From a virus, in the IMG/VR virus record IMGVR_UViG_3300045988_119356, positions 1 to 53,790 of that record: a stretch of DNA of 53,790 nucleotides; one strand, given 5' to 3'. The notes under the pieces are model-generated. The model had not been told where the DNA came from, did not search any database, and saw nothing but the letters and a program-made list of their open reading frames with translations. Position 1 is the stretch's first letter. Every line of letters begins with the position of its first letter. A program made the position numbers and the translations under genes. Below, in pieces: positions 5,715-53,790 of this stretch.

Positions 5715-7191
5715 TATGACAAAGAAAAATTTATTAAAACGCTCTCCTGACATTGAAACAATGGTGCCTTACTGGGACAAAGTTTCCGATATTCTTGATG
5801 GCGAAGAGGCTATCAAAGCTCGTGGTAAAAACTATCTTCCTAAATTTCCCGATGAAGAAGAAAACGATTTTGATTTTAGGTTAACGGTAGCTAAATTTAC
5901 AAATATTTATCGAGATGTTGTTGAAGGATTAGCAACTAAGCCGTTTCAAGATGAAATAGGGTTGTTAGGTGGTGAAAAAAGACCTCAACAATTAAAAGAT
6001 TTTGCTGAAGATGTTGACGGGTTCGGAAGCAATTTAACTACGTTTGCCGCGTTGACGTTTTTCAACGCTATCAATTATGGAATTGATTGGATATTTATAG
6101 ATTATCCGACAGTCCAAAATCCTGAGAATGTAACAATTGCTGAAGCTAAAAAGAAAAATCTAAAGCCGTTTTGGGTTCATATTTTAGGTAAGAATGTTCT
6201 CGAAGTAGAAACTCGTATGGAAGGTTCGAAACAGATTATAACTTATTTTCGTTGTCAAGAACCTGGTTTCGGTAATGAACCAATGCACGTTCGCGAGTTT
6301 GTGGAAACCGAGGGTGGTGTTATATGGACTTTATATGTAAAAGTTAAAAACGACGATGGTGAAGATGAATTTGTTGTTGTTGACGAGGGTAAATTATCTA
6401 TTAATTTTATTCCTATCGTCCCGTTCATAACCGGTCGAAGAGATGGCAAAAGCTTTAAAGTTTATCCACCGATGAGAGATGCTGCCGACTTGCAGATAAC
6501 TTTATATCAGAATGAATCGGCTCTTGAATATATTAAAGTTTTAGCTTGCTATCCGATGTTGGCCACAGACGGAACAAAAGCGCCTGTGGACGCAGAAGGA
6601 AAACCGATTAAATTACGTGTCGGGCCAAATAGAGTTATCTATGGTGTTCAGAAAGGTAATGGCGACGGTGGAACTTGGCAGTATGTTGAACCGCAAGCAA
6701 ACAGCCTTGAGTTTTTACAAAAGAACATTGATAAAACCAAAAACGATTTACGAGAGTTAGGTCGTCAACCGCTTACAGCATTATCAACACAATTGACAAC
6801 AGTAACCACGTCCATTGCCGCCGGTAAAGCTAAATCAGCAGTTACCGCATGGGCGTATGCACTTAAAGATGCTTTGGAAAATGCTTTAGCTATTACTATG
6901 AAATGGATGGGTATAGATTATCAACCTGAAATAAATGTTTATACAGGTTTTGATAATGTGCTTGATGATGGTAGTGATATTGAAGAATTAGGAAAAGCTA
7001 GAGAGCGTGGAGATATTTCGGTTGAAACATACTGGGATGAATTGAAACGTCGTAAAATTCTTTCTCCTGAGTTTGATGTAGAGGAAGAAAGAAAAAGGCT
7101 TTTAGATGATATTCCGGCAGATACTGATCCGGATGTTAAATCCGAAAATGAAGCTGATAACAATCTTAACCAAGAAAAAGAGGAAAAATAA
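5704..7191 (+). CDS. Portal protein
   Basis: 495 aa immediately after the terminase, with an acidic C-terminus. Confidence 0.7.
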   Translation: MVFDMTKKNLLKRSPDIETMVPYWDKVSDILDGEEAIKARGKNYLPKFPDEEENDFDFRLTVAKFTNIYRDVVEGLATKPFQDEIGLLGGEKRPQQLKDFAEDVDGFGSNLTTFAALTFFNAINYGIDWIFIDYPTVQNPENVTIAEAKKKNLKPFWVHILGKNVLEVETRMEGSKQIITYFRCQEPGFGNEPMHVREFVETEGGVIWTLYVKVKNDDGEDEFVVVDEGKLSINFIPIVPFITGRRDGKSFKVYPPMRDAADLQITLYQNESALEYIKVLACYPMLATDGTKAPVDAEGKPIKLRVGPNRVIYGVQKGNGDGGTWQYVEPQANSLEFLQKNIDKTKNDLRELGRQPLTALSTQLTTVTTSIAAGKAKSAVTAWAYALKDALENALAITMKWMGIDYQPEINVYTGFDNVLDDGSDIEELGKARERGDISVETYWDELKRRKILSPEFDVEEERKRLLDDIPADTDPDVKSENEADNNLNQEKEEK

Positions 7192-7947
7192 ATGCCGAGT
7201 TGGAAAGTAGATGAAAATGGCAATATTGTCATGAAAGACGGTAATCCGGTTTATGTTAACACTAATGGTGAAGAACAAACAGTTGCTGTCGATACAATTT
7301 CACGTTTGAACAATGAATCGAAAATGCACAGAGAAGCTAAAGAAGCCGCTCTTGAAAAACTTAAAGCTTTCGAAGGGTTGGATGCTACGAAAGCTCGTGA
7401 AGCTCTTGAGATGGTTGCCAAATTGGATGCTAATAAACTAATCGACGCAGGTAAAGTTGATGAAGTGAAATCTCAAATCACAGCTCAATTTCAGACCCAA
7501 ATCGACGAGAAAAGCAAAGCTTTGAGTGATTTGCAGACTAAATACGACAATATGATTGTCAATAATTTGTTCGCAAATTCGGAGTTTATTCGCAACAATG
7601 TAGCTGTTCCGAGAGATATGTTTGAAGCTAAATTCCGCAGTAACTTTAAAGTTGAAAACGGTCAAGTTGTTGTTTACGGGAACGACGGAAATCGTTTATA
7701 CAGCAAAGAACGCGCTGGTGAATATGCAACACCAGAAGAAGGTTTGCGTATTTTGGCCGAAGCTCATCCTCAACACGATAGTATCTTGAGAGCTAATACT
7801 GGAAGTGGCACTGGTTCAACAGGTGCAAGTGGTGGCTCAGGCGGTTCAAGATACATGAAACGTTCTGATTTTGCTAAACTTTCACCTGTTCAACAATCAG
7901 AGTTTGCTCAGAAAATGGCAAAAGGTGAAATCAGCTTGACAGATTAA
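7192..7947 (+). CDS. Scaffolding protein (putative)
   Basis: 251 aa, coiled-coil-rich, with a Gly/Ser linker, between the portal and coat genes. Confidence 0.5.
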   Translation: MPSWKVDENGNIVMKDGNPVYVNTNGEEQTVAVDTISRLNNESKMHREAKEAALEKLKAFEGLDATKAREALEMVAKLDANKLIDAGKVDEVKSQITAQFQTQIDEKSKALSDLQTKYDNMIVNNLFANSEFIRNNVAVPRDMFEAKFRSNFKVENGQVVVYGNDGNRLYSKERAGEYATPEEGLRILAEAHPQHDSILRANTGSGTGSTGASGGSGGSRYMKRSDFAKLSPVQQSEFAQKMAKGEISLTD

Positions 7948-7961
7948 AATTAACTTGATAA

Positions 7962-8085
7962 AGTATAATTGCTTTATTAAGGATTTAACGAAGCGCACTT
8001 AGGTTGGATGACCTGTATCAATCAATCGGTGCGCTTTTTTACGCACCAAACAAAATTAACTAACAATTTTAAGAGGTGCTAATCA
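7962..8085 (+). promoter_or_regulatory. Conserved leader element, copy A: TATAAT, then the hairpin AGCGCAC...GGTGCGC, T6, ACGCACC, then the RBS AAGAGGTGC and ATGGCAAAT.
   Basis: About 115 nt, nearly identical to 12259-12380. It contains a terminator-like hairpin plus T-run and an alternative GGTGCG/CGCACC pairing. Confidence 0.7.
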
Positions 8086-9227
8086 TGGCAAATATTTTGA
8101 CTCTTTTTATCCCGACACTTTTTCAGTCGTTGGATAAAGTTTCTCGCGAGTTGGTAGGTTTTATTCCTTCTGTTGCTCGTAACTCTTCTGCCGCTCGCGC
8201 AGCTTTGAACGAATCTATTTTGGTTCCGGTAAGTACTCCTACCGAAGCTAAAGATTGCGCTCCGTCTATGAATGTTCCTGAACCGGACGATATGAAATTA
8301 GACAACGTTGAAATTAAAATCACGAAATCTAAAAACGTTTCTTTTGGTTTGACCGGTGAGGATTATAAAGGTTTGGAAAACGGTATCGGTGTAAGTGAAG
8401 TTTTTGCTGGTAAATTCGAGCAAGCCATTCGTACTCTTACCAATATGATTGAATCGGACGTTGCCGCTGAAGCTGCCATCAGTGCTTCCAGAGCTTTCGG
8501 TACCCCTGGTACTGCTCCGTTCGCTAGTGATTTGAAAGACGCCGCTCAACTTCGTAAGATTTTGGACGATAACGGAGCTCCGATGTCGGATCGTTCTTTG
8601 ATTATCGATACCAACGCCGGTGTAAACTTGCGTGGTTTAACTCAGTTGACTAATGCTGGCGATGCCGGTACTACAATGACTCTTCGTCAAGGTCAGTTGC
8701 TTGATTTGTTCGGATTGTCTGTTAAAGAATCTGCTCAAATTAAATCTTTCGCTAAAGGTTCTGCTGAGGGTGCTACTGTTAATACTGCTGAAGTTGGAGC
8801 TACCGAGTTGACTTTGAAAGCTGGTACTTCTGGAAATCTTAAAGCTGGTGATGTTATTACTCTTGCTGGTGACAACAACAAGTATGTTGTTATGAAAGAC
8901 GTTGCAATTTCTACCGGTAACAAAATCGAGATTGCTCAACCTGGTTTGCGTGTAGCTGCCAACGATGGTGCTTCTGTTACTGTTGTTGAGAGTTCTATTC
9001 GTAACGTTGCTTTCAACCGCGATGCTATCCAGCTTGTTACTCGCGCTCCCGCTTTGCCTGCTGGTGATGACTCTGCTGATGACAGTTATATGTTGACAGA
9101 TCCACGTTCTGGTATGTCTTACGAAGTTCGTGTATACAAAGGCTATCGTAAACAGCGCGTAGAAGTTGCTTGTGCTTGGGGTGTTAAAGCCATTAAGCCT
9201 GCACACATCGCTGCCTTGCTTGGTTAA
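8086..9227 (+). CDS. Major capsid (coat) protein
   Basis: 380 aa after a strong RBS. The ATG at 8086 is preferred over the GTG at 8076. It sits in the head module after the scaffold gene. Confidence 0.65.
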
Positions 9228-9289
9228 GGTAACGGGGAGGGTGTTTCACCGCCCTCCCATTTTTTAACTTTCTTAATTGGAGAAAATTC

Positions 9290-9553
9290 ATGAGTGAAAT
9301 TTTACCTACCGTTAAAGTTAAACATAAAAAATACGGTATTGAGATGATTGTTAACGAATCTGATTTTAATTCTGAAATTCATGAACCTTTGTGTGAAAAA
9401 AGTAAAAAATTAGTTTCCGAAATGAAGAAATCTGAAAAAGGAATTAAAGGTAAGAAAGAAACCATCGACGGTGGTGAAACCGAAGAAGATGCTAAAAAGA
9501 AAGCCGAGGAAGAAGAGGCAGCTAAATTGAAAGCCCTTATGGGAGGAAAATAA
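9290..9553 (+). CDS. Small lysine/glutamate-rich head protein (decoration or cement?)
   Basis: 87 aa between the coat and connector genes. Confidence 0.4.
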   Translation: MSEILPTVKVKHKKYGIEMIVNESDFNSEIHEPLCEKSKKLVSEMKKSEKGIKGKKETIDGGETEEDAKKKAEEEEAAKLKALMGGK

Positions 9554-10053
9554 TGTTTTACGGTAACGTTGACGATTTCAAAGAATATTTTACATCTAGA
9601 GGTAAAACCATCCCTGAAACTTGGACGGATGAAATGATTGAGTCAGCGTTACTCGTTTCTTCCGAATGGCTCGATGGTCAATATGAAAGTTTGTGGATTG
9701 GTTATAAGGTCGATTTCAAACAAGAAAGAAGTTGGCCTCGCCAGTCTGCCCAAGTCCAATCATATCCTTATTATGTTTACAAAAACGATGAGATACCTGA
9801 ACAAGTTGTCAAAGCTGTTTACGAAGCTTGCTTTAGAGAGTTAACAAAATCAGGTTCTTTACAGGTTGATTTTACTCCGAATAAATACAAATCTGTATCG
9901 GTCGACGGTGCTATATCAGTCGAATACAATGATATTTTATATGCTTCAGAAAGTCAGATTCAGATGCCTGTAATTCAAACGTTAATGTCGGTTTTGATAG
10001 ATCAATCAAAAGGTGGAAATAATCCTATATCAGGAAAAGCGAGCCGTGTATGA
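9553..10053 (+). CDS. Head-tail connector/adaptor (putative)
   Basis: 166 aa, ATGA-coupled, in the head-completion position. Confidence 0.4.
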   Translation: MFYGNVDDFKEYFTSRGKTIPETWTDEMIESALLVSSEWLDGQYESLWIGYKVDFKQERSWPRQSAQVQSYPYYVYKNDEIPEQVVKAVYEACFRELTKSGSLQVDFTPNKYKSVSVDGAISVEYNDILYASESQIQMPVIQTLMSVLIDQSKGGNNPISGKASRV

Positions 10054-10415
10054 GTATTTATGACGATTTACAAAGTGTTACATCTGAGATAATGAGTGAG
10101 TTCAAACAAGGATTAATTCAACTTGTCCAGTTCAAATATTCAGAAGATTCGACACCAGATAATCCCGGAGAACCCGAAGAAGTTTTGATTGAATTAAACG
10201 GAACTGTTAAAGGTGTAAGCTATAAGTATTTAAAAGATAGTTTTATAACAGCTTCCGATAAAGAGATTACAACTGCTGTTGTAAACGATGTTATTCCGTC
10301 TGAAAACGATTTTATCGAAATAGATAATGTCAGATATAAAATATTAGAGTTTTTGCCTTTACCCGGTGCTGGGACACCTTGTGCGTGGAAGTTTATAGCA
10401 CGTAAAGGAGGATAG
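10050..10415 (+). CDS. Head-completion protein (putative)
   Basis: 121 aa, translationally coupled. Confidence 0.35.
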   Translation: MSIYDDLQSVTSEIMSEFKQGLIQLVQFKYSEDSTPDNPGEPEEVLIELNGTVKGVSYKYLKDSFITASDKEITTAVVNDVIPSENDFIEIDNVRYKILEFLPLPGAGTPCAWKFIARKGG

Positions 10416-10416
10416 C

Positions 10417-11424
10417 ATGGCTACAACTCTTCAACAATTATATCTTTTACAAATTCCTGAAGTTCAAACGCTTTTTATTAACGCTATGGAAAATATCGTC
10501 GATCGCGCTGTTATCGAGGATATGATTAAAGCTATTGAGAATAATGATGTTGAAGCTCTTTATCAAGCAAGTGGTTTTACTCCGGCTTTGTTAAATCCAA
10601 TAATTAAAAAAATCGAAGATATATATGAAGAAACAGCAAGTATCACTTTGAGTAGTTGGCCTAAACGACTTAACGCGGTTTTTAATATTCGTAACGAAAA
10701 AGTCGAAAAAGATTTGAGAGATTATTCAAGTAATTTTATAAGTAATATTACAAATGAAGCCAAAGAAGTTGTCCGTTTTCAACTAAGCGAAGGTATGGCA
10801 AGAGGTGATAATCCTAGGGAAACAGCTTTGAATATCGTTGGCCGTATTAATCCGACAACAAAGAAAAGGGAGGGTGGAGTTATAGGATTATCATCCAATC
10901 AAGTCAAATGGGTCGCCAATGCTCGAAAATATTTGGAAAATTTAGATGAAAAATATTTCACTTTAGGTTTGAGAGATAAGCGTTTTGATTCAATAGTTAA
11001 GAAAGCTGTTGAGAGCGGTAAAAAGTTGAATAAAGATGAAATTAGTAAACTTATAACCGCTTATGAGAAAAAAGCGTTAAAATATCGTGGGGATGCTATT
11101 GCTAGAACAGAAACAATGCAAGCTATAAATCGCGGTGAGTACGCTTCAATTCAACAAAACATTGACGAAGGTTTAATACGAGAAGACCAAGTCCGTAAAT
11201 GGTGGGATGATACCGGTGATGGGCGCACTCGATTAACTCACGTTGGTTTAGGTAACAAATATAATAAAAAAAATACAATCGGATTTAATGAACCTTTCGT
11301 TTCGGTATCTGGTTCAGAATTGCTTTATCCTGGTGACAAATCTCTTGGTGCAAATCCAAAAGAAACAATTCATTGTCGTTGTAAAGCACAATATAAAATT
11401 GACTTTTTAGCAGGGTATGTATAA
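10417..11424 (+). CDS. Head morphogenesis protein of the Mu F / SPP1 gp7 family
   Basis: C-terminal W..D..DGRTR.TH..L.G......F......PP-like region ending in HCRCKAQY, the family's CRC signature. Confidence 0.5.
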   Translation: MATTLQQLYLLQIPEVQTLFINAMENIVDRAVIEDMIKAIENNDVEALYQASGFTPALLNPIIKKIEDIYEETASITLSSWPKRLNAVFNIRNEKVEKDLRDYSSNFISNITNEAKEVVRFQLSEGMARGDNPRETALNIVGRINPTTKKREGGVIGLSSNQVKWVANARKYLENLDEKYFTLGLRDKRFDSIVKKAVESGKKLNKDEISKLITAYEKKALKYRGDAIARTETMQAINRGEYASIQQNIDEGLIREDQVRKWWDDTGDGRTRLTHVGLGNKYNKKNTIGFNEPFVSVSGSELLYPGDKSLGANPKETIHCRCKAQYKIDFLAGYV

Positions 11425-11861
11425 TGGCCGAAAGTTTTAATGCTGTAATAGATAAAGTTGTCGCTGACACCAAGGAAAAAATGCTTGCTGTCGTTAAAAA
11501 CAGTATTCAAGAGGTTGTCGAAGATGCTCAAACTCCACTTGCTAAAGGTGGTAAAATGCACGTTGATACTGGGTTTCTAAGGTCATCTGGTCAAGCTCAA
11601 TTAAATCAATTGCCAGTAGGTCAAACCGAGGGTCGTGAACGTGCAGAAGGTGAAGTTGGTGTTTTACCAGAATATGCTACACCGGATAAAGCAGATTATA
11701 TATTGCCTACACTTGCAAAAATGAAAGTCGGTGATACTTTTTATTTCGGATGGACTGCTAGATATGCTCAAATTCGTGAAATTTACGACGGGTTTATGGA
11801 ATCTGCGATTATGAAATGGAAACAAATTGTTGACAACCAGATAAGGAGATTGAAAAAGTGA
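11424..11861 (+). CDS. Neck / tail-completion protein (putative)
   Basis: 145 aa, placed between the head and tail modules. Confidence 0.35.
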   Translation: MAESFNAVIDKVVADTKEKMLAVVKNSIQEVVEDAQTPLAKGGKMHVDTGFLRSSGQAQLNQLPVGQTEGRERAEGEVGVLPEYATPDKADYILPTLAKMKVGDTFYFGWTARYAQIREIYDGFMESAIMKWKQIVDNQIRRLKK

Positions 11862-12265
11862 TTGAATCTAAAATTTTAAATCTTTTACAAAAAAAGGTAA
11901 CCGAGGTTGTCAATAACGTTTATTCGGTTAAATATATAAACACTAATATAAAAGCTAAAGATAAGTTTTGGGAAATTGTTTATATCCCGAATAACATTGA
12001 AGATGAATTTTGGGATGAAGGTAAAACTTATCGCGGTATAATGCGTCTGATACTTCACTGGCCACAAGACAATAAAGGTATATACAAACCCATGGAAGAA
12101 GCTGAAAGAGTTGCTGACGGCTTTAAAAAAGGCTTGGAGTTGTTTGATGATAAGAATCATTTAAAGGTTACTTTAACAGATAATGCCGATTGCACGGGCA
12201 TTGTTGAAAATGAGGGTAAACTGTTAATACCCTTGACAATTAAATATCTATGTTTTAAGCTATAA
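11858..12265 (+). CDS. Tail terminator/completion protein (putative)
   Basis: 135 aa immediately upstream of the tail tube gene. Confidence 0.35.
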   Translation: MIESKILNLLQKKVTEVVNNVYSVKYINTNIKAKDKFWEIVYIPNNIEDEFWDEGKTYRGIMRLILHWPQDNKGIYKPMEEAERVADGFKKGLELFDDKNHLKVTLTDNADCTGIVENEGKLLIPLTIKYLCFKL

Positions 12266-12371
12266 TTGCTTTTATTTAATAAAAGAGCGCACTAGGTTGG
12301 ATGACCTAAAATCAATCAATCGGTGCGCTTTTTTACGCACCAAAGAACTTAAACTTTTAAGAGGTGCATAA
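12259..12371 (+). promoter_or_regulatory. Conserved leader element, copy B (same structure as 7962-8085).
   Basis: Near-identical sequence, including the RBS AAGAGGTGC and the first codons ATGGCAAAT. Confidence 0.7.
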
Positions 12372-13130
12372 ATGGCAAATACAAACGCGTTTTCGAAACT
12401 TTTTGTTTGTCCTATTCCCCAAAACAATGATTTGACCGAAGACGATTACAACGGTTTAGAGTGGAAATTGGTCAAAGGTGTTGGTAATCTTGGAGAAACA
12501 GGTAAACAAACAAACGTTTTGACATATAACACATGGGAAACCGAAGTAGCCGATAAAGCTAAAGGTATTACCGACGCAGGTTCACCAACCGTTGAAGTTG
12601 CTCGTGACCCTTATGATGAAGGTCAGCAAATTTTGCGTGAGGCCGGCGCAGTAGGTAACAACAATAAATATGCTTTCAAAATTTTGAGAGCTGACGGTCC
12701 GCTTGGTGGTACCGGTACAATTCAATACAACAGAGGTATTGTAGCTGGACCAACCCGTCCGAACGGACAGAACGAAGATTTCGATTTGGAAGTCTTTACT
12801 CTTGGTTTGGTACAAGAAGAAATCGTTGTTAATCCGACAACTGGCTCTCAAGCTCCGACTTTAACAGCAGCTCCGTCCATTTCAGGTACAGAACAAGTTG
12901 GTGAAACTCTTACCTGTACAAATGGTACATTCTCCGGTGCTGAAACAATCACTTATTCTTATCAATGGTTTGCAAACGGTGTCGCTGTTTCTGGCGCTAC
13001 TGCAAGCACTTATGAACTTAAAGCATCCGATAAGGATAAAGTTTTCATGTGCCGTGTAATGGCCAAAAATGCCGGTGGTTACGCTTATGGTTTCTCAAAC
13101 ACAACATCTAAAGTAACTGAAGGAGCTTAA
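12372..13130 (+). CDS. Major tail tube protein with a C-terminal Ig-like (Big_2) domain, like lambda gpV
   Basis: 252 aa. The C-terminus TLTCTNGTFSGAETITYSYQWF...FMCRV is Ig-like. It is followed by the G/GT chaperones and the tape measure. Confidence 0.7.
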   Translation: MANTNAFSKLFVCPIPQNNDLTEDDYNGLEWKLVKGVGNLGETGKQTNVLTYNTWETEVADKAKGITDAGSPTVEVARDPYDEGQQILREAGAVGNNNKYAFKILRADGPLGGTGTIQYNRGIVAGPTRPNGQNEDFDLEVFTLGLVQEEIVVNPTTGSQAPTLTAAPSISGTEQVGETLTCTNGTFSGAETITYSYQWFANGVAVSGATASTYELKASDKDKVFMCRVMAKNAGGYAYGFSNTTSKVTEGA

Positions 13131-13132
13131 AC

Positions 13133-13510
13133 ATGGATTTAGCTAGTCTTAAACCATCGGAAAGAATTATTGACATTTTACATCCTGTATCTGGTGACAA
13201 AATCGGTGTAACAGTTCAAATTCTTTCTTTATCTGACGAAAGAATGATGAACGTAAAACGTCGTATTCGAAACAAAAATATCGAACTTCAAAAAAGAGGT
13301 AAAACTCTGAAAGCTTCTGATATTGAAGATAACGAATTGGATTTGTTGGTTGCTTGCATTACCGGTTGGAACTGGGGCGAAAATAAATTCAAAGATAAAA
13401 CACCGGACTGCAACGAGAAAAATGTAAAAGAAGTCCTTACTGAACTTCCTTGGTTTAAACAGCAAATCACGGAGGCTATTGACGACGAAAAAGCTTTTTT
13501 TCAGAGTTAA
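13133..13510 (+). CDS. Tail assembly chaperone (gpG-like)
   Basis: 125 aa. Its 3' end contains the heptamer T_TTT_TTT in the zero frame. Confidence 0.65.
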   Translation: MDLASLKPSERIIDILHPVSGDKIGVTVQILSLSDERMMNVKRRIRNKNIELQKRGKTLKASDIEDNELDLLVACITGWNWGENKFKDKTPDCNEKNVKEVLTELPWFKQQITEAIDDEKAFFQS

Positions 13511-22439: not shown

Positions 22440-22885
22440 CAAATTATGCAAAACTGGTTAACGGGCGGTTGGAATACGCACCGATTAATTTAGAAACGGA
22501 TACTGGCGTTATATTTAATTATGGCTTGGAAGTTAATGCTCATCAGCTGCTGGCAGACGGCTACAAGCCGGTAGAACTAATCGAAGATAAATCGAAATAT
22601 AGCGATTGTGAAGGTGAATATACTTTCGAGTTCGAAGAAAAAACCGATAAAATTATCGAAGTTGCAAAGTATCACCGCTATTCTGATGAAGTTCTTAATG
22701 AAAAGATAAGACAAAATCGTCTTAACGCTTATCGGAACAATACCGACCAATTAACACTTAGAAAATTACGCAAGCAAGCTATTGGTGCTTGGACTGAAGC
22801 TGATGAAGCGGAATATGTCGAAATGGTCAAAAAAATGTCATCTGATATTGATACAGGAAATCCCTATATTGACATTGTAGATTAA
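22436..22885 (+). CDS. Tail fibre assembly or distal tail protein (putative)
   Basis: 149 aa, ATGA-coupled. Confidence 0.3.
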   Translation: MTNYAKLVNGRLEYAPINLETDTGVIFNYGLEVNAHQLLADGYKPVELIEDKSKYSDCEGEYTFEFEEKTDKIIEVAKYHRYSDEVLNEKIRQNRLNAYRNNTDQLTLRKLRKQAIGAWTEADEAEYVEMVKKMSSDIDTGNPYIDIVD

Positions 22886-22905
22886 ATAATTTATCATAAT
22901 GGTAT

Positions 22906-22979
22906 GGGCGGTTGGCAGAACGGTTATGCGTGGGACTGCAAATCCCTTTAAGTAGGTTCAACTCCTATATCGCCCTCCA
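22906..22979 (+). tRNA. tRNA-Cys(GCA)
   Basis: Folded by hand. Acceptor GGGCGGT/ATCGCCC; D-stem GCA/TGC with a GG loop; anticodon stem GGGA/TCCC with loop CTGCAAA; T-arm GTAGG-TTCAACT-CCTAT; discriminator T; encoded CCA. Confidence 0.6.
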
Positions 22980-29128: not shown

Positions 29129-29204
29129 CGGGAGGTAGCTCAGTTAGTAGAGCACTAGATTGAAAATCTAGGTGTCGGTGGGGCGGAACCACCCCTCTCT
29201 ACCA
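29129..29204 (+). ncRNA. tRNA-like element with a GAA (Phe) anticodon, a C1-U72 mismatch and a non-canonical T-loop (GGCGGAA); it encodes CCA
   Basis: Hand fold. D-arm GCTC-AGTTAGTA-GAGC; anticodon arm CTAGA-TTGAAAA-TCTAG; T-stem GGTGG/CCACC; acceptor CGGGAGG/CCTCTCT with 6 of 7 pairs. Confidence 0.5.
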
Positions 29205-33851: not shown

Positions 33852-33879
33852 ATCGGCAGACTTTGACCGGTCTGCCAGC
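33852..33879. repeat. 28-nt hairpin element ATCGGCAGACTTTGACCGGTCTGCCAGC, copy 1
   Basis: Identical to 48829-48856. It contains GGCAGAC/GTCTGCC arms and a GACCGGTC core. Confidence 0.8.
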
Positions 33880-33896
33880 GGTTGTCAACATTAGGA

Positions 33897-36150: not shown

Positions 36151-36849
36151 TTAGATGCCTTTTTTAGCTAATTCGTTAATGACAAACAGCATCGCGTTCT
36201 CATTATCACGCATTTCGAACATACCTTGATATGAAGTACCGAAAGTAGCGTTAACAGTGTTGAGAACTCCTTGCATATAGTTAGCTTCAATCAACTTGTT
36301 TGCGAGAGCATATTGCAACTTGTTTGAAAAAGTTTCAAACGTTGACGGTGCCGGAGCGGCAGGAGCTGGAGCAACTGGAGCCGGTGCAACTACTGGAGCA
36401 GGCGCAGCTACGGGAGCTTGAACCTGTTGAACGGGTACGAAAGCCTGAACCGGTGCTGGAGCAACCGGTGCCGGTGCAACTACCGGAGCTTGGACGGATT
36501 CAGGAATAGGTGCTGGAATTGGAGCATCTTCGGTCACCGGTTCAGCAGCTTCCCATTTGCCTAACAATTCAGCTTTAACAGAGTTGTAAACTTCGTCGCT
36601 AACACCACGACGACGTTGCCATACACCTTGAGCAGTCAATTTGTGATTTGAGCTGTGGATTCTTTCGTCCCACGGTAAACCTTCTTTGTCAAAATCCATA
36701 GTATTATCAATCGGCTCTTCGACAACATCATCAGTGCTAACAACAACCGGAGCGTTGGACGGGGTAATAACCTCGTCGATAACATTGTTCAAAACTTTAG
36801 CAACGGCCAACAACTCAACCGCCGTAATATCTTCTAATGTAATTTTCAT
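36151..36849 (-). CDS. Hypothetical protein with a long Pro/Ala/Val repeat linker
   Basis: 232 aa with (APV)n repeats between two folded regions. Confidence 0.45.
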   Translation of the reverse strand: MKITLEDITAVELLAVAKVLNNVIDEVITPSNAPVVVSTDDVVEEPIDNTMDFDKEGLPWDERIHSSNHKLTAQGVWQRRRGVSDEVYNSVKAELLGKWEAAEPVTEDAPIPAPIPESVQAPVVAPAPVAPAPVQAFVPVQQVQAPVAAPAPVVAPAPVAPAPAAPAPSTFETFSNKLQYALANKLIEANYMQGVLNTVNATFGTSYQGMFEMRDNENAMLFVINELAKKGI

Positions 36850-42226: not shown

Positions 42227-42313
42227 TGGTGGGCGCAATCAGAATCGAACTGATACTCCGCAATTGGAACAAGATTTTAAGTCTTGCGTGTCTACCATTT
42301 CCACCATGCACCC
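42227..42313 (-). tRNA. tRNA-Leu(TAA), type II with a long variable arm and encoded CCA
   Basis: Hand fold of the reverse complement. Acceptor GGGTGCA/TGCGCCC; anticodon arm CAAGA-CTTAAAA-TCTTG; 15-nt variable arm; T-arm ATCAG-TTCGATT-CTGAT. Confidence 0.7.
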
Positions 42314-48828: not shown

Positions 48829-48856
48829 ATCGGCAGACTTTGACCGGTCTGCCAGC
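48829..48856. repeat. 28-nt hairpin element, copy 2
   Basis: Identical to 33852-33879. Confidence 0.8.
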
Positions 48857-48865
48857 AATTATTAA

Positions 48866-51097: not shown

Positions 51098-51460
51098 TTA
51101 AACTTTATTAACATATCTGAACGTCCTTCCAGCTAAAGTTTTCACGTTGCGAATACCTTTTAAATGCTTGCTCATGTTACCTTTACCAACATTAGCCCAT
51201 CGAGCAGCTTGTTCAGCGTTGAGAAATATATCACCTGTTTCAGTACAAACAACAGCTGATGTCGGTAACAGTTTTAAACCCATAAATCCGGCGAAATCAA
51301 TAGCGTGTTTCATAGCGTCCGAAAAATTGTCATGGACGGATAAAATTTTTATATCGCACAAATTATCAGGGGTAATATGTTTTGCTATTTTATCACTGCT
51401 GTTAGCGCCGATTTGTGTAATAGTACCGCATGTAACGGTATATGTGTAATAGTACCGCAT
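51098..51460 (-). CDS. Third paralog of the homing-endonuclease-type DNA-binding domain protein
   Basis: AVVCTETGDIFLNAEQAARWANVGKGNMSKHLKGIRNVKTLAGRTFRYV. The start is placed at the TAATG overlap at 51460 rather than the track's 51562. Confidence 0.5.
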   Translation of the reverse strand: MRYYYTYTVTCGTITQIGANSSDKIAKHITPDNLCDIKILSVHDNFSDAMKHAIDFAGFMGLKLLPTSAVVCTETGDIFLNAEQAARWANVGKGNMSKHLKGIRNVKTLAGRTFRYVNKV

Positions 51461-52041
51461 TAATTTTCTCCCGCTAATTTTACAGTTAAACCAAATATTT
51501 CCGCTTCTCTTATATCTTTGCATGTATGTATAATAGTACCGCGCGCATCTAAAATTTGCCACTCGGCTTTATTAACCGTTTCAGGATATAACTCGTAAGC
51601 CATTATCAGCGCTTGACGGCTTTTATCGGCGTTCCGGAAATATAACGGATCACCGAATAATACCGGAATGTTGATAATCATATCAGGGCCGATAAAATCT
51701 TTCACCAGTTGATAAATTTTAGCGCTGGTATAAAGTCGGTCAAAAATTGCAAAACCGTCCTGTAATAGTACTTTGTCATCAAACCAAAGTCTGTTTGCGT
51801 TCTCGACACTGCGTAATAGTACAGCGCGCCAATCTGGGTATTCTTCAGCACAATTTGTCGGCATCTGTGTAATAGTATCCCAAAACTTATTCATAAAGGG
51901 CGTGCCGCCGCTTTCAATAAGCATGATTTTCCCATCACTAGCCACAAACTCACCGGTGTTCGGGTCTTGATAAACATATTGAAGAGCTCCGCGCGTTGTG
52001 AGCTTGCTGGCGGCTTTATTCAAGAAAGGTGAGTAAAACAT
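51460..52041 (-). CDS. Hypothetical protein
   Basis: 193 aa. It contains several GTAATAGTAC motif copies in different reading frames. Confidence 0.5.
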   Translation of the reverse strand: MFYSPFLNKAASKLTTRGALQYVYQDPNTGEFVASDGKIMLIESGGTPFMNKFWDTITQMPTNCAEEYPDWRAVLLRSVENANRLWFDDKVLLQDGFAIFDRLYTSAKIYQLVKDFIGPDMIINIPVLFGDPLYFRNADKSRQALIMAYELYPETVNKAEWQILDARGTIIHTCKDIREAEIFGLTVKLAGEN

Positions 52042-52196
52042 CTTTTGATCCTCCGATATATTTCTTCTATTTTAACAACAAACCAAGCAATAGGATATAT
52101 TACACCGGCAATTATTAAAATTATCATCGGAAATGCTATCTTTAACCCTATTATAAAAAAAGGTAATAAAGCAACAAATATAAATACTTCTATCAT
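52017..52196 (-). CDS. Small hydrophobic membrane protein of 59 aa
   Basis: MIEVFIFVALLPFFIIGLKIAFPMIILIIAGVIYPIAWFVV..., with an RBS GGAG. It is under 60 aa, so it is not in the track. Confidence 0.35.
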
Positions 52197-52231
52197 TTTA
52201 ATCTCCGCGTGTTATGAGCTTGCTGGCAGTT

Positions 52232-52582
52232 TTATTGAGTAATGGACTGTAAAACATTCCGCACCCCGTCTAAATACTCTTCAATGTCTGCTATTTTTTC
52301 AGTTACAGAATCATAAGTACCACCTTTAACCTCTTCGGCCTTGATTAAAATATCATCAATATCATTCAAACAATCCGAAATATCATTCAAACAATCCGAA
52401 ATATCATTCAAACAATCCGAAATATTATTCAAATTATCATCGATGTCGCTGGTGTCCGGCGTTGCTTTCAACAGTCTTTCGGCCAACTCTCTCAACAATT
52501 CGTCTTTGTCTTGGGACTCAACATAGCTGTTATGATTACCGTTTGCGATGTCCTCAATGTCCGATTTATCTAATGCTAACAT
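52232..52582 (-). CDS. Acidic protein with (ISDCLND)x3.5 heptad repeats
   Basis: 116 aa. A 21-nt DNA tandem repeat lies at about 52358-52440. Confidence 0.5.
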   Translation of the reverse strand: MLALDKSDIEDIANGNHNSYVESQDKDELLRELAERLLKATPDTSDIDDNLNNISDCLNDISDCLNDISDCLNDIDDILIKAEEVKGGTYDSVTEKIADIEEYLDGVRNVLQSITQ

Positions 52583-52921
52583 ATTTCGATTCTCCCTTTT
52601 TTAATGGTATTTTACAAACTTGTTAAACAATGTCAAGATTTATTTGTGTGATGGTACAGGATTAAAACCAAATAAAAGCTTTTTTAATTATTTTAGCGTT
52701 TTTACCCCAATATAATTTCCTCATACCGGATATAGACGCGTTCGGGCCTACACTCGGGCAATTTTCAAGCTCCGGGCACTTATCATCTTTTTTTTAAAAT
52801 AAAAGTCTGTCCCGGTTCAATTTTATTTTTCAAATCTTTAAGCGTGTATAACATTTTTCGAATCCTCTCTATTTATTGTTTATATTATATTTATAACACA
52901 TTTTAAAATTGTTGACAACAA

Positions 52922-53676: not shown

Positions 53677-53708
53677 TGTGATAGTATAGCATGTAATAGT
53701 ACAGCATC
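53677..53708 (+). repeat. Two tandem copies of the GTRATAGTAYAGCAT motif (GTAATAGTAC family)
   Basis: TGTGATAGTATAGCATG followed by TGTAATAGTACAGCATC. The same family occurs at 51414, 51443, 51527, 51810 and 51866. Confidence 0.7.
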
Positions 53709-53714
53709 CAACAC

Positions 53715-53790
53715 TCCGAACGACGTTAACAGGCGTTGAACGTGTTAAACACTCCGAACGACGTTAACAGGCGTTGAACGTGTTAAACAC
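53715..53790. repeat. Right terminal repeat: two tandem 38-nt units, preceded by a partial unit.
   Basis: Read directly from the sequence. The last 55 nt equal the first 55 nt of the window. Confidence 0.9.

Follow-up and report, generated by a model that had tools for sequence, protein, structure and literature searches.

A promoter-hairpin cassette duplicated before the major head and major tail protein genes of a siphovirus-type phage: a candidate on/off leader

INTRODUCTION

In lytic phages without an RNA polymerase, a sigma factor or a Q/N-type antiterminator of their own, the timing and scaling of abundant virion proteins are poorly understood. In the late unit of phage lambda, a short transcript started at the PR' promoter is terminated at tR', and Q acts by antitermination. 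In phage Mu, com/mom control is a case of translational activation, in which a hairpin occludes both the Shine-Dalgarno (SD) sequence and the start codon of a late gene. In 201phi2-1, a Pseudomonas jumbo phage studied together with phiKZ, terminators were mapped immediately downstream of promoters before the major capsid gene, and a conserved small RNA derived from a 5' untranslated region (5'UTR) was mapped upstream of a tail gene; a role in timing via antitermination has been proposed for the promoter-proximal terminators of these phages (PMC11512511). Phage HK022 carries putL and putR, two cis-acting RNAs of ~70 nucleotides (nt) near its promoters, which act via the zinc-binding domain of the polymerase beta' subunit (PMC9378689), and the PeSL cassettes of T4-like phages are composite promoter-terminator elements found in many copies around variable accessory open reading frames (ORFs) (PMC2839356, PMC4122927). 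Here, we analyzed a cassette of ~150 bases that occurs twice in the IMG/VR virus record IMGVR_UViG_3300045988_119356 (positions 1 to 53,790; the whole 53,790-nt stretch is called the window), at 7936-8087 before the major head gene and at 12233-12374 before the major tail gene. Each copy consists of a sigma-70-type promoter and three predicted hairpins, designated P0, P1 and P2, and the cassette probably represents a previously undescribed leader that turns synthesis of the two most abundant virion proteins on and off.

RESULTS

The cassette is duplicated and conserved at both positions

The two genes served by the cassette are as follows.

8085-9227, + strand: major head (coat) protein gene, served by copy 1 (phrog_283, E = 3e-93)
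12372-13130, + strand: major tail (tube) protein gene, served by copy 2 (phrog_158, E = 1e-23)

A preliminary description of the window, made from its letters alone, had reported two nearly identical regions before these genes, and every motif that it quoted was recovered where it had been placed. Near-identity held for the core (ATCAATCAATCGGTGCGCTTTTTTACGCACCAAA at 8017-8050 and 12311-12344; 34/34 identical, with 0 such matches in 100 shuffles) and was limited to ~7990-8050 versus 12285-12344 plus TTTTAAGAGGTGC...ATGGCAAAT, whereas the copies diverged in the first ~20 transcribed bases and in the spacer 5' of the SD. Within AGCGCACT(T)AGGTTGGATGACCT, one inserted T was the sole difference between them. 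An alignment of 180 columns, including promoters and start codons, gave 84% identity. When a covariance model of the hairpin (R1) was run over the whole window with filters off, copy 2 and copy 1 scored 77.2 and 76.7 bits, the minus strand at the same two loci 19 and 14 bits, and all other matches at most 13 bits, so that no third or degenerate copy was found in the window by this search. At gathering scores, Rfam 15 returned only three tRNAs and no family for the cassette; in a sub-threshold (E-value) search over 7930-8100, the best match reached 14 bits against a threshold of 34 and belonged to an unrelated family.

In viral and metagenome collections, motif scans recovered the cassette from about a dozen contigs (41-54 kb), invariably as one copy upstream of coat and another upstream of tube, and the resulting leader set comprised 26-27 unique sequences. 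The repeat had been proposed to be a dedicated leader of these two genes that related phages should share, and both positions were indeed occupied in every relative carrying the cassette. Among 80 coat relatives, it was present only at a coat identity of at least 65% (L010-L013, L015 and L069) and missing where identity fell under ~55%; in more distant relatives, the scaffold stop codon ran straight to the SD with no cassette in between, which points to a clade-specific insertion. Four partial contigs represented divergent lineages: L097, L102 and L115 had the cassette before coat homologues with N-terminal extensions, and L117 had half a cassette before a tube homologue. In L097 (1988 onward), L115 (3622 onward) and L117 (449 onward), the coat or tube homologues were extended by ~18-25 residues before the Met-Ala-Asn-aligned start; such extensions may be propeptides or mis-called starts. 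A megablast search with positions 7000-13200 gave no match among deposited phage genomes. Two matches (L090 and L091) from a motif scan of 185,579 species genomes, considered as prophage or host occurrences, were rejected as chance hits, each lying within coding DNA whose GC content was unrelated.

Within single genomes, the two copies resembled each other (identity of 0.91 in L104 and 0.82 in L015) more than orthologues did in distant genomes (0.59-0.76), and both L015 copies had the stem extension GGUGAAGUGC/GCGCUUCAC in common. This closer resemblance of paralogues suggests that the copies either undergo gene conversion or are co-adapted to a partner that they share.

A sigma-70-type promoter has an invariant register

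7936-7970, + strand: copy 1 promoter, with -35 TTGACA at 7936-7941, -10 TAAAGT at 7959-7964 (17 base pairs [bp]), TATAAT at 7964-7969 (22 bp) and an AT-rich discriminator
12233-12267, + strand: copy 2 promoter, with -35 TTGACA at 12233-12238, TAAGCT at 12256-12261 (17 bp) and an overlapping TATAAT at 12261-12266

The copy 1 promoter overlaps the last codons and stop of a scaffold-like gene (7192-7947), and the copy 2 promoter sits within the 3' end of an ORF at 11858-12265. The preliminary description had paired TTGACA with TATAAT. Their spacing is exactly 22 nt in both window copies, but this TATAAT is clade-specific and replaced in L094, L097, L102, L115 and L117; the register found in all lineages was TTGACA (or TTGACG/TTGACT), 17 nt and TAnnnT, with TAAAGT, TAAGCT, TAAATT, TAATTT, TACACT, TATTAT, TATATT, TATTCT and TAAGAT as -10 hexamers. 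A promoter scan likewise reported copy 1 as TTGACA-17-TAAAGT preceded by TG. The pattern TTGACA-17-TAnnnT occurred seven times in the window versus one expected, which fits a dependence on the host sigma-70 polymerase. From the 17-bp register, the predicted start (+1) falls on the G of a conserved (A)TTGC, at 7971 in copy 1 and 12268 in copy 2, and is exactly where P0 begins; TATAAT, the additional -10-like hexamer, then occupies -7 to -2, outside the transcribed sequence. A MotA-box reading of the TGCTTTA after TATAAT was rejected, with no -10 at the required distance and TGCTTT not kept in tube copies, as were promoters of the sigma-54, sigma-E and sigma-28 types in the invariant block described below, where sequence and spacing did not fit on inspection.

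P1 is a stable hairpin with an invariant apex and a U-tract

7990-8040, + strand: P1 of copy 1, with 5' arm GAAGCGCACU at 7990-7999, 3' arm GGUGCGCUUU at 8028-8037 and U-tract at 8035-8040; predicted RNA of ~70 nt
12281-12334, + strand: P1 of copy 2, AAAAGAGCGCAC ... GGUGCGCUUUUUU, with U-tract at 12329-12334 and apical block at 12295-12307; predicted RNA of ~67 nt
8002-8014, + strand: invariant apical block GGTTGGATGACCT of copy 1, a putative binding site of a trans-acting factor

In both window copies, a U6 run comes directly after GCGCAC...GUGCGC, and the earlier suggestion that this stem and T-run resemble an intrinsic terminator was borne out to that extent. The hairpin is irregular, 48-54 nt long in the window and up to ~60 nt in other genomes. 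P1 folded at -20.9 kcal/mol (z = -4.4) in copy 1 and -21.8 kcal/mol (z = -5.4) in copy 2, and at -19 to -22 kcal/mol across homologues, with z of -3.4 to -6.2 against shuffled sequence. RNAalifold on the homologues recovered the P1 helix, and the + strand folded 4.5-6.6 kcal/mol better than the - strand. Four basal pairs of P1 changed on both sides, for example AAAUGAAG/CUUCAUUU in L102 versus AAACGAAG/CUUCGUUU in L115, and 87.7% of cells in the basal columns were paired, versus 34-41% when the partner columns were slid. C-to-U changes in the 5' arm faced G, giving G-U wobbles that exist on the + strand only. No variation among homologues was seen in the core GCGCAC/GUGCGC or in the upper helix.

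An uninterrupted run of at least five U directly followed GCGC in 18 of 26 leaders, and three others (L094, the L015 tube copy and the L106 coat copy) had a U5-U8 run after an extended stem. The combination of an extended stem and a new U-tract in L094 and the L015 tube copy argues for selection on a terminator function. An A-tract upstream pairs with the U-run.

The apical block, GGUUGGAURACCU, was invariant in the 26 unique leaders except for R (G/A) and one U-to-C change, a degree of conservation beyond structural need, and CAAUCGG adjoining the 3' arm was invariant as well. In L117, the tube leader (reverse strand, ~332-450) has kept TTGACA-17-TATTAT and the 5' half AAGCGCACAGGTTGGATGACCT and has no P1 3' arm or U-tract, and GGATGACC recurs at the ribosome-binding site of its tube gene; judging from this single sequence, the block may function without the hairpin. 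Control by a leader peptide or upstream ORF (uORF) was considered and rejected: AUG-ACC-UAA and longer uORFs start in the block, one subclade has AUA for AUG (GGAUAACC), and uORF lengths are not conserved. From the block AUG, copy 1 has a uORF of 24 codons (8006-8084) running through the P1 3' arm and P2 to a stop 3 nt before the coat AUG, and copy 2 (12299-12307) encodes Thr and then a stop; the uORF is not conserved across the clade. The block (GGUUGGAU(G/A)ACCU, at 8002-8014 and 12295-12307) also matches, at 12 of 13 positions, the 3' end of enterobacterial 16S rRNA (GGUUGGAUCACCUCCUUA, GGUUGGAUCACCU), a likeness that is probably coincidental, if striking for a translation leader. The sole variable position of the block is the mismatch, which removes pairing with the G of AGGUG (anti-SD).

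Sequence that is invariant beyond structural need could instead mark an operator at the DNA level, the block and inverted repeats binding a DNA regulator at ~+30 to +75; palindromic half-sites can covary too, and L117 keeps the block without the 3' arm. We regard such an operator as highly improbable, since the signal is strand-specific, with invariant G-U pairs that would be A-C mismatches on the other strand and the better folding of the + strand given above, and since P0, P1 and P2 follow one another in a consistent series between +1 and the SD.

P2 is predicted to occlude the SD in every leader

8042-8079, + strand: P2 of copy 1, CGCACC (8042-8047) paired with GGUGC (8075-8079) within the SD AAGAGGUG (8071-8078); -8.4 kcal/mol
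12336-12367, + strand: P2 of copy 2, CGCACC (12336-12341) paired with GGUGC (12363-12367) of the SD AAGAGGUG (12359-12366); -7.5 kcal/mol

Folding predicted a paired SD core for each of the 27 unique leaders, where the unpaired probability averaged 0.03. Within the window, the predicted unpaired probability was 0.01 for the coat gene and 0.00 for the tube gene, the two lowest values among 45 genes with a median of 0.41. This conserved sequestration had escaped the preliminary description. In the main clade, P2 ranged from -7.3 to -9.3 kcal/mol. L097, L102 and L115 formed P2 from unrelated sequences (AUGAGUGCGCC/GGUGACACUCAU, GAGUAGCACC/GGUAGCUACUC and GGUAGCACC/GGUAGCUAC, respectively), with a helix reaching the AUG and energies of -14.4, -14.5 and -11.8 kcal/mol (z of -4.1, -7.5 and -4.5). 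Like the P1 base, P2 covaried among lineages. These lineages lack the U-tract and have the strongest P2, which suggests that an OFF state is maintained, via termination or via sequestration. Both P2 and P0 were judged on per-sequence folds because MAFFT placed the lineages in different registers.

The CGCACC strand of P2 has two alternative partners, the SD GGUGC and the GGUGCG of the P1 3' arm, and it was the latter pairing that had been taken for an anti-terminator swallowing the T-run. As an isolated hairpin it is stable (-10.5 kcal/mol, z = -4.0), and the pairing potential is kept in most homologues. However, CGCACC lies 3' of the U-tract, and in stepwise folding P1 was complete before CGCACC emerged; synthesized after the U-tract, it cannot influence termination through this pairing. 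P1 (-21 kcal/mol) also forms first and is much more stable, and GGUGCG:CGCACC was without covariation, with both partners altered in the L015 tube copy in a non-compensating manner. Classical attenuation, with P1 as terminator and GGUGCG:CGCACC as anti-terminator, is thus barely plausible. In the folding model, the pairing could at most be a post-transcription competitor of P2, that is, an anti-sequestor: upon removal of the P1 5' arm, about half of the leaders switched to it and mean SD accessibility rose only from 0.03 to 0.25.

The terminator hairpin, the U6 tail and a conserved single-stranded block are also what a small RNA would be expected to show, and 5'UTR-derived small RNAs have been mapped upstream of structural genes in jumbo phages (PMC11512511). 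The promoter, P0, P1 and U-tail of each copy would then yield a ~67-70-nt RNA with the loop GGUUGGAURACCU as seed, and the mRNAs would arise by read-through. This appears improbable: a search of the phage genome for complements of the block gave 9 matches with up to three mismatches versus 9.0 expected by chance, the U-tract-less L097, L102 and L115 retain both P1 and the block, and P2 would go unexplained.

P0 is a weak 5'-terminal hairpin that overlaps P1

7971-7994, + strand: P0 of copy 1, GCUUU-A-UUAA-GGAU-UUAA-C-GAAGC from the predicted +1 (G7971), by stepwise folding
12268-12288, + strand: P0 of copy 2, GCUUUUAUUUAAUAAAAGAGC, weaker than P0 of copy 1 and with a loop without GGA

A fold of this type was found in the first 20-25 nt of 23 of 26 unique leaders, a 5' GC closing onto RAGC at the base of the P1 5' arm, and it is this recurrence across leaders, not any single fold, that supports P0. 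Its inner helices varied by lineage (UUAA/UUAA, UCUA/UAGA, UGGA/UCCG, GUCU/AGAU and UCGUUUU/AAAAUGA). In copy 1, the P0 3' strand GAAGC doubles as the base of the P1 5' arm, and the P0 5' strand GCUUU has the same sequence as GCUUU at the P1 3' base, so both compete for (G)AAGC. On the predicted folds, P0 is the sole helix with a true anti-terminator topology, overlapping the 5' arm of the terminator, and it was not among the helices noticed earlier. A rather unlikely possibility is that the overlapping -10 hexamers, 5 bp apart, could give transcripts with or without the P0 5' strand, and that the choice of start would set the switch. GGAU was displayed in the P0 loop of 15 of 26 leaders; in copy 1, it lies in two adjacent hairpin loops ~25 nt apart, at 7980-7984 (P0) and 8006-8010 (P1 apex).

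Genome context

The window begins and ends with an identical 55-nt terminal direct repeat (1-55 and 53736-53790), with a partial third copy at 53698-53752, which indicates a complete circular or circularly assembled genome of ~53.7 kb. Its structural module is of the siphovirus type (terminase, portal, scaffold, coat, connectors, tube and tape measure), and its replication module comprises a family-A DNA polymerase, a Gp2.5-like single-strand-binding protein, an exonuclease, a helicase and a primase. Three methyltransferases, a holin-endolysin pair and three tRNAs are also encoded. One further element bears on transcription of the coat region.

9235-9265, + strand: strong canonical terminator after the coat gene, GGGAGGGUG-UUUCAC-CGCCCUCCC, A, U6, with a 9-bp GC-rich stem; the top match of the terminator scan

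Together with the upstream promoter, this terminator defines a coat-only transcription unit, and expression of genes 9290-12265 would depend on read-through or on a promoter that has escaped notice. Downstream of the tube gene, no terminator was detected. A cis-acting antiterminator RNA of the put type, which would arise close behind each promoter, bind the transcribing polymerase and make it resistant to downstream terminators such as the one after coat, would offer such read-through to genes 9290-12265. Two similar, structured, promoter-proximal RNAs of ~70 nt per genome recall HK022 putL/putR (PMC9378689), and a -10-like hexamer adjoins the start. We nevertheless give this explanation very little credence: P1 ends in a terminator-like U-tract and put RNAs do not, Rfam revealed no similarity in sequence or structure to any described family, and the second copy lies merely 4.3 kb downstream of the first, with no detectable terminator after the tube gene that it serves.

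Several further features of the window were recorded. The tRNA genes are Cys-GCA (22869-22979), Phe-GAA (29129-29204) and Leu-TAA (42227-42313), with TTGACA-17-TATCAT directly upstream of tRNA-Cys. The divergent early region contains four ATTTGTGTAATAGTACCGCAT-like 21-mers (51411-52662), three tandem 21-nt repeats (AAACAATCCGAAATATCATTC; 52347-52430) and a 55-nt repeat pair (51987 and 52203); the repeats of this region (51411-52662) could be operators or iterons. A 37-nt repeat (33852-33888 and 48829-48865; 89% identical), with the palindrome GGCAGAC...GTCTGCC, lies at the ends of two minus-strand gene blocks, and the pair may be shared terminators. An imperfect repeat of the GGAGCNGGNGCA type (36347-36489), coding for Gly/Ala-rich sequence, lies in a small ORF between two replication gene blocks.

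DISCUSSION

A tentative model of a leader that is OFF by default

In both copies and all relatives, the terminator-like hairpin follows the promoter, an order typical of attenuation or antitermination and not of operon punctuation. The reading we favor, though with somewhat less than even confidence because it infers that termination occurs, where transcription starts, that a factor exists and in which direction it regulates, is that the cassette combines a default-OFF attenuator with a leader that sequesters translation signals and that would be opened by a putative factor. A self-contained cis-regulatory cassette would thus have been inserted before both genes of a phage reliant on host RNA polymerase. 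Transcription would start from the consensus-like sigma-70 promoter (TTGACA-17-TAnnnT) at the conserved G of (A)TTGC; the first ~22 nt would form the weak 5'-terminal P0, and the next ~50 nt would form P1 with its GC-rich base and U6, where most transcripts would stop by default as an RNA of ~70 nt. In transcripts that read through, CGCACC:GGUGC would form P2 and close the ribosome-binding site too, so that the leader would be OFF at two levels. A putative factor, encoded by phage or host, might read GGUUGGAURACCU and/or the P0 GGAU loop; its binding would favor P0 and disfavor closure of the P1 base, termination would fail, and the freed P1 3' arm GGUGCG would capture CGCACC and release the SD. 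The co-evolution of the two copies within a genome would fit a shared trans-acting partner.

Several observations weigh against this model. No regulator candidate emerged: a PHROGs/Pfam scan of ~70 ORFs of at least 50 amino acids revealed no Q-family protein or recognizable RNA-binding protein. The same scan gave no RNA polymerase or sigma factor either, a result that counts in favor of the model. A default-OFF state is counter-intuitive for the genes needing the highest expression, and a strong SD may be all that is needed for the main clade to tolerate a P2 of ~-8 kcal/mol. Masking or removing the P1 5' arm freed the SD only partly and inconsistently, and the masking run was confounded by an artificial 3' tag. 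P0 is weak (-2.6 to -7.4 kcal/mol, with individual z of -0.7 to -2.6), and it overlaps P1 by just 2-5 nt in the main clade. P1 is not a textbook terminator; a consensus scan (loop of 3-8) left it out, yet found the terminator at 9235. Counted over unique leaders, 5 of 26 have a broken or missing U-run; breaks were seen in L092, L099 and the L106 tube copy, and L097, L102 and L115 have no such tract. Covariation is modest, with a P1 core and upper helix that never vary and an RNAalifold covariation term of only -0.33, and is limited because the clade is shallow. In addition, resistance to processive antitermination has been reported for terminators with long stems (PMC10325885), which calls for caution about a simple antitermination model involving P1.

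These difficulties are taken up, in part, by a less likely but serious alternative, in which the cassette would be an unregulated expression booster: a strong promoter, stabilizing 5'UTR hairpins, an AU-rich enhancer and a strong SD, with weak termination and no switch. Here, the 5'-terminal stem would shield the transcript from decay that depends on the 5' end, and the U-run would mainly pair with the upstream A-run. The leaders of ompA and T7 gene 10 have 5'-terminal stems that protect from decay. A near-consensus promoter, a P0 that begins at the predicted +1, the degeneration or loss of the U-run in several lineages and the pairing of the A-tract with it agree with this alternative, as do the position of the cassette before exactly the two proteins needed most, the separate terminator downstream of the coat gene and the failure to find a regulator. 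It leaves unexplained the 13-nt invariant apical block, the most occluded SD of the genome, the strong AUG-covering P2 (-12 to -14.5 kcal/mol) where the U-tract is lost, and the new U-tract after extended stems in the L015 and L094 phages.

A more elaborate scheme is rather unlikely, namely a modular phage riboregulator of a new class, in which a chain of mutually exclusive helices (P0, P1, 3' arm:CGCACC and P2) would gate both transcription and translation; similarly doubtful is its corollary that one factor would read both GGUUGGAURACCU and the P0 GGAU loop. If it were true, a host-polymerase-dependent lytic siphovirus would possess a late switch without a sigma factor or a Q- or N-type protein. 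Compact and conserved, the cassette stands ahead of precisely the coat and the tube gene and unites a near-consensus host promoter, a terminator-like hairpin and an occluded ribosome-binding site. Should it prove to be regulated, the cis-regulatory leaders of phages, of which there are very few, would gain a further RNA family, and the cassette could be used as a portable part with OFF/ON control at two levels. Should it not, it would clearly exemplify an expression booster in the form of a movable cassette.

Comparison with known systems

We class the cassette as a probable variant of the promoter-proximal cis-regulatory leader; it falls outside every family definition that can be tested. Like the lambda PR'-tR'-Q system, it has a constitutive host-type promoter, a putative terminator within ~70-200 nt, a position upstream of virion genes and a second -10-like hexamer. 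In contrast, it occurs once per gene, in two units, whereas in lambda a single unit serves the entire late operon; the ORF scan gave no Q-family protein; the cassette also occludes the SD; and its extra -10-like hexamer overlaps the discriminator instead of the initially transcribed region and is absent in divergent lineages. The jumbo phages 201phi2-1 and phiKZ are unrelated, have RNA polymerases of their own and show no sequence relation to the cassette, which is a single element duplicated before both genes and known from sequence only.

Compared by description and not by sequence model, the HK022 put RNAs are similar in copy number, size and position, P0 and P1 provide two stems, and putL has a nearby -10-like element; put RNAs differ in their two-stem V shape, the lack of a U-tract and their early promoters, whereas the hairpin of the cassette ends in a U-tract and precedes late genes. 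The PeSL cassettes are likewise movable repeats of ~100 nt with a sigma-70-like promoter, stem-loop, SD and start codon, but in them the stem-loop precedes the promoter; in the present cassette, it follows the promoter, and the two copies stand before core genes. High-affinity CsrA/RsmA targets, defined by two or more GGA-bearing hairpin loops at a distance of 10-60 nt, one of them commonly at the SD, have a two-loop GGA layout like that of P0 and P1; in the cassette, UGGAUG is always at the P1 apex, the window tube copy is without the first site, and the SD AGAGGUG is without GGA.

With Mu com/mom and SD-sequestering leaders, the cassette shares occlusion of the SD and start and an adjacent upstream hairpin, a plausible protein site whose occupation would open the stem; unlike com/mom, no Com-like protein was identified, and the upstream hairpin is also terminator-like. 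By analogy, its closest functional parallel would be a lambda PR'-tR' unit, or a classical attenuator, joined to a leader that sequesters the SD.

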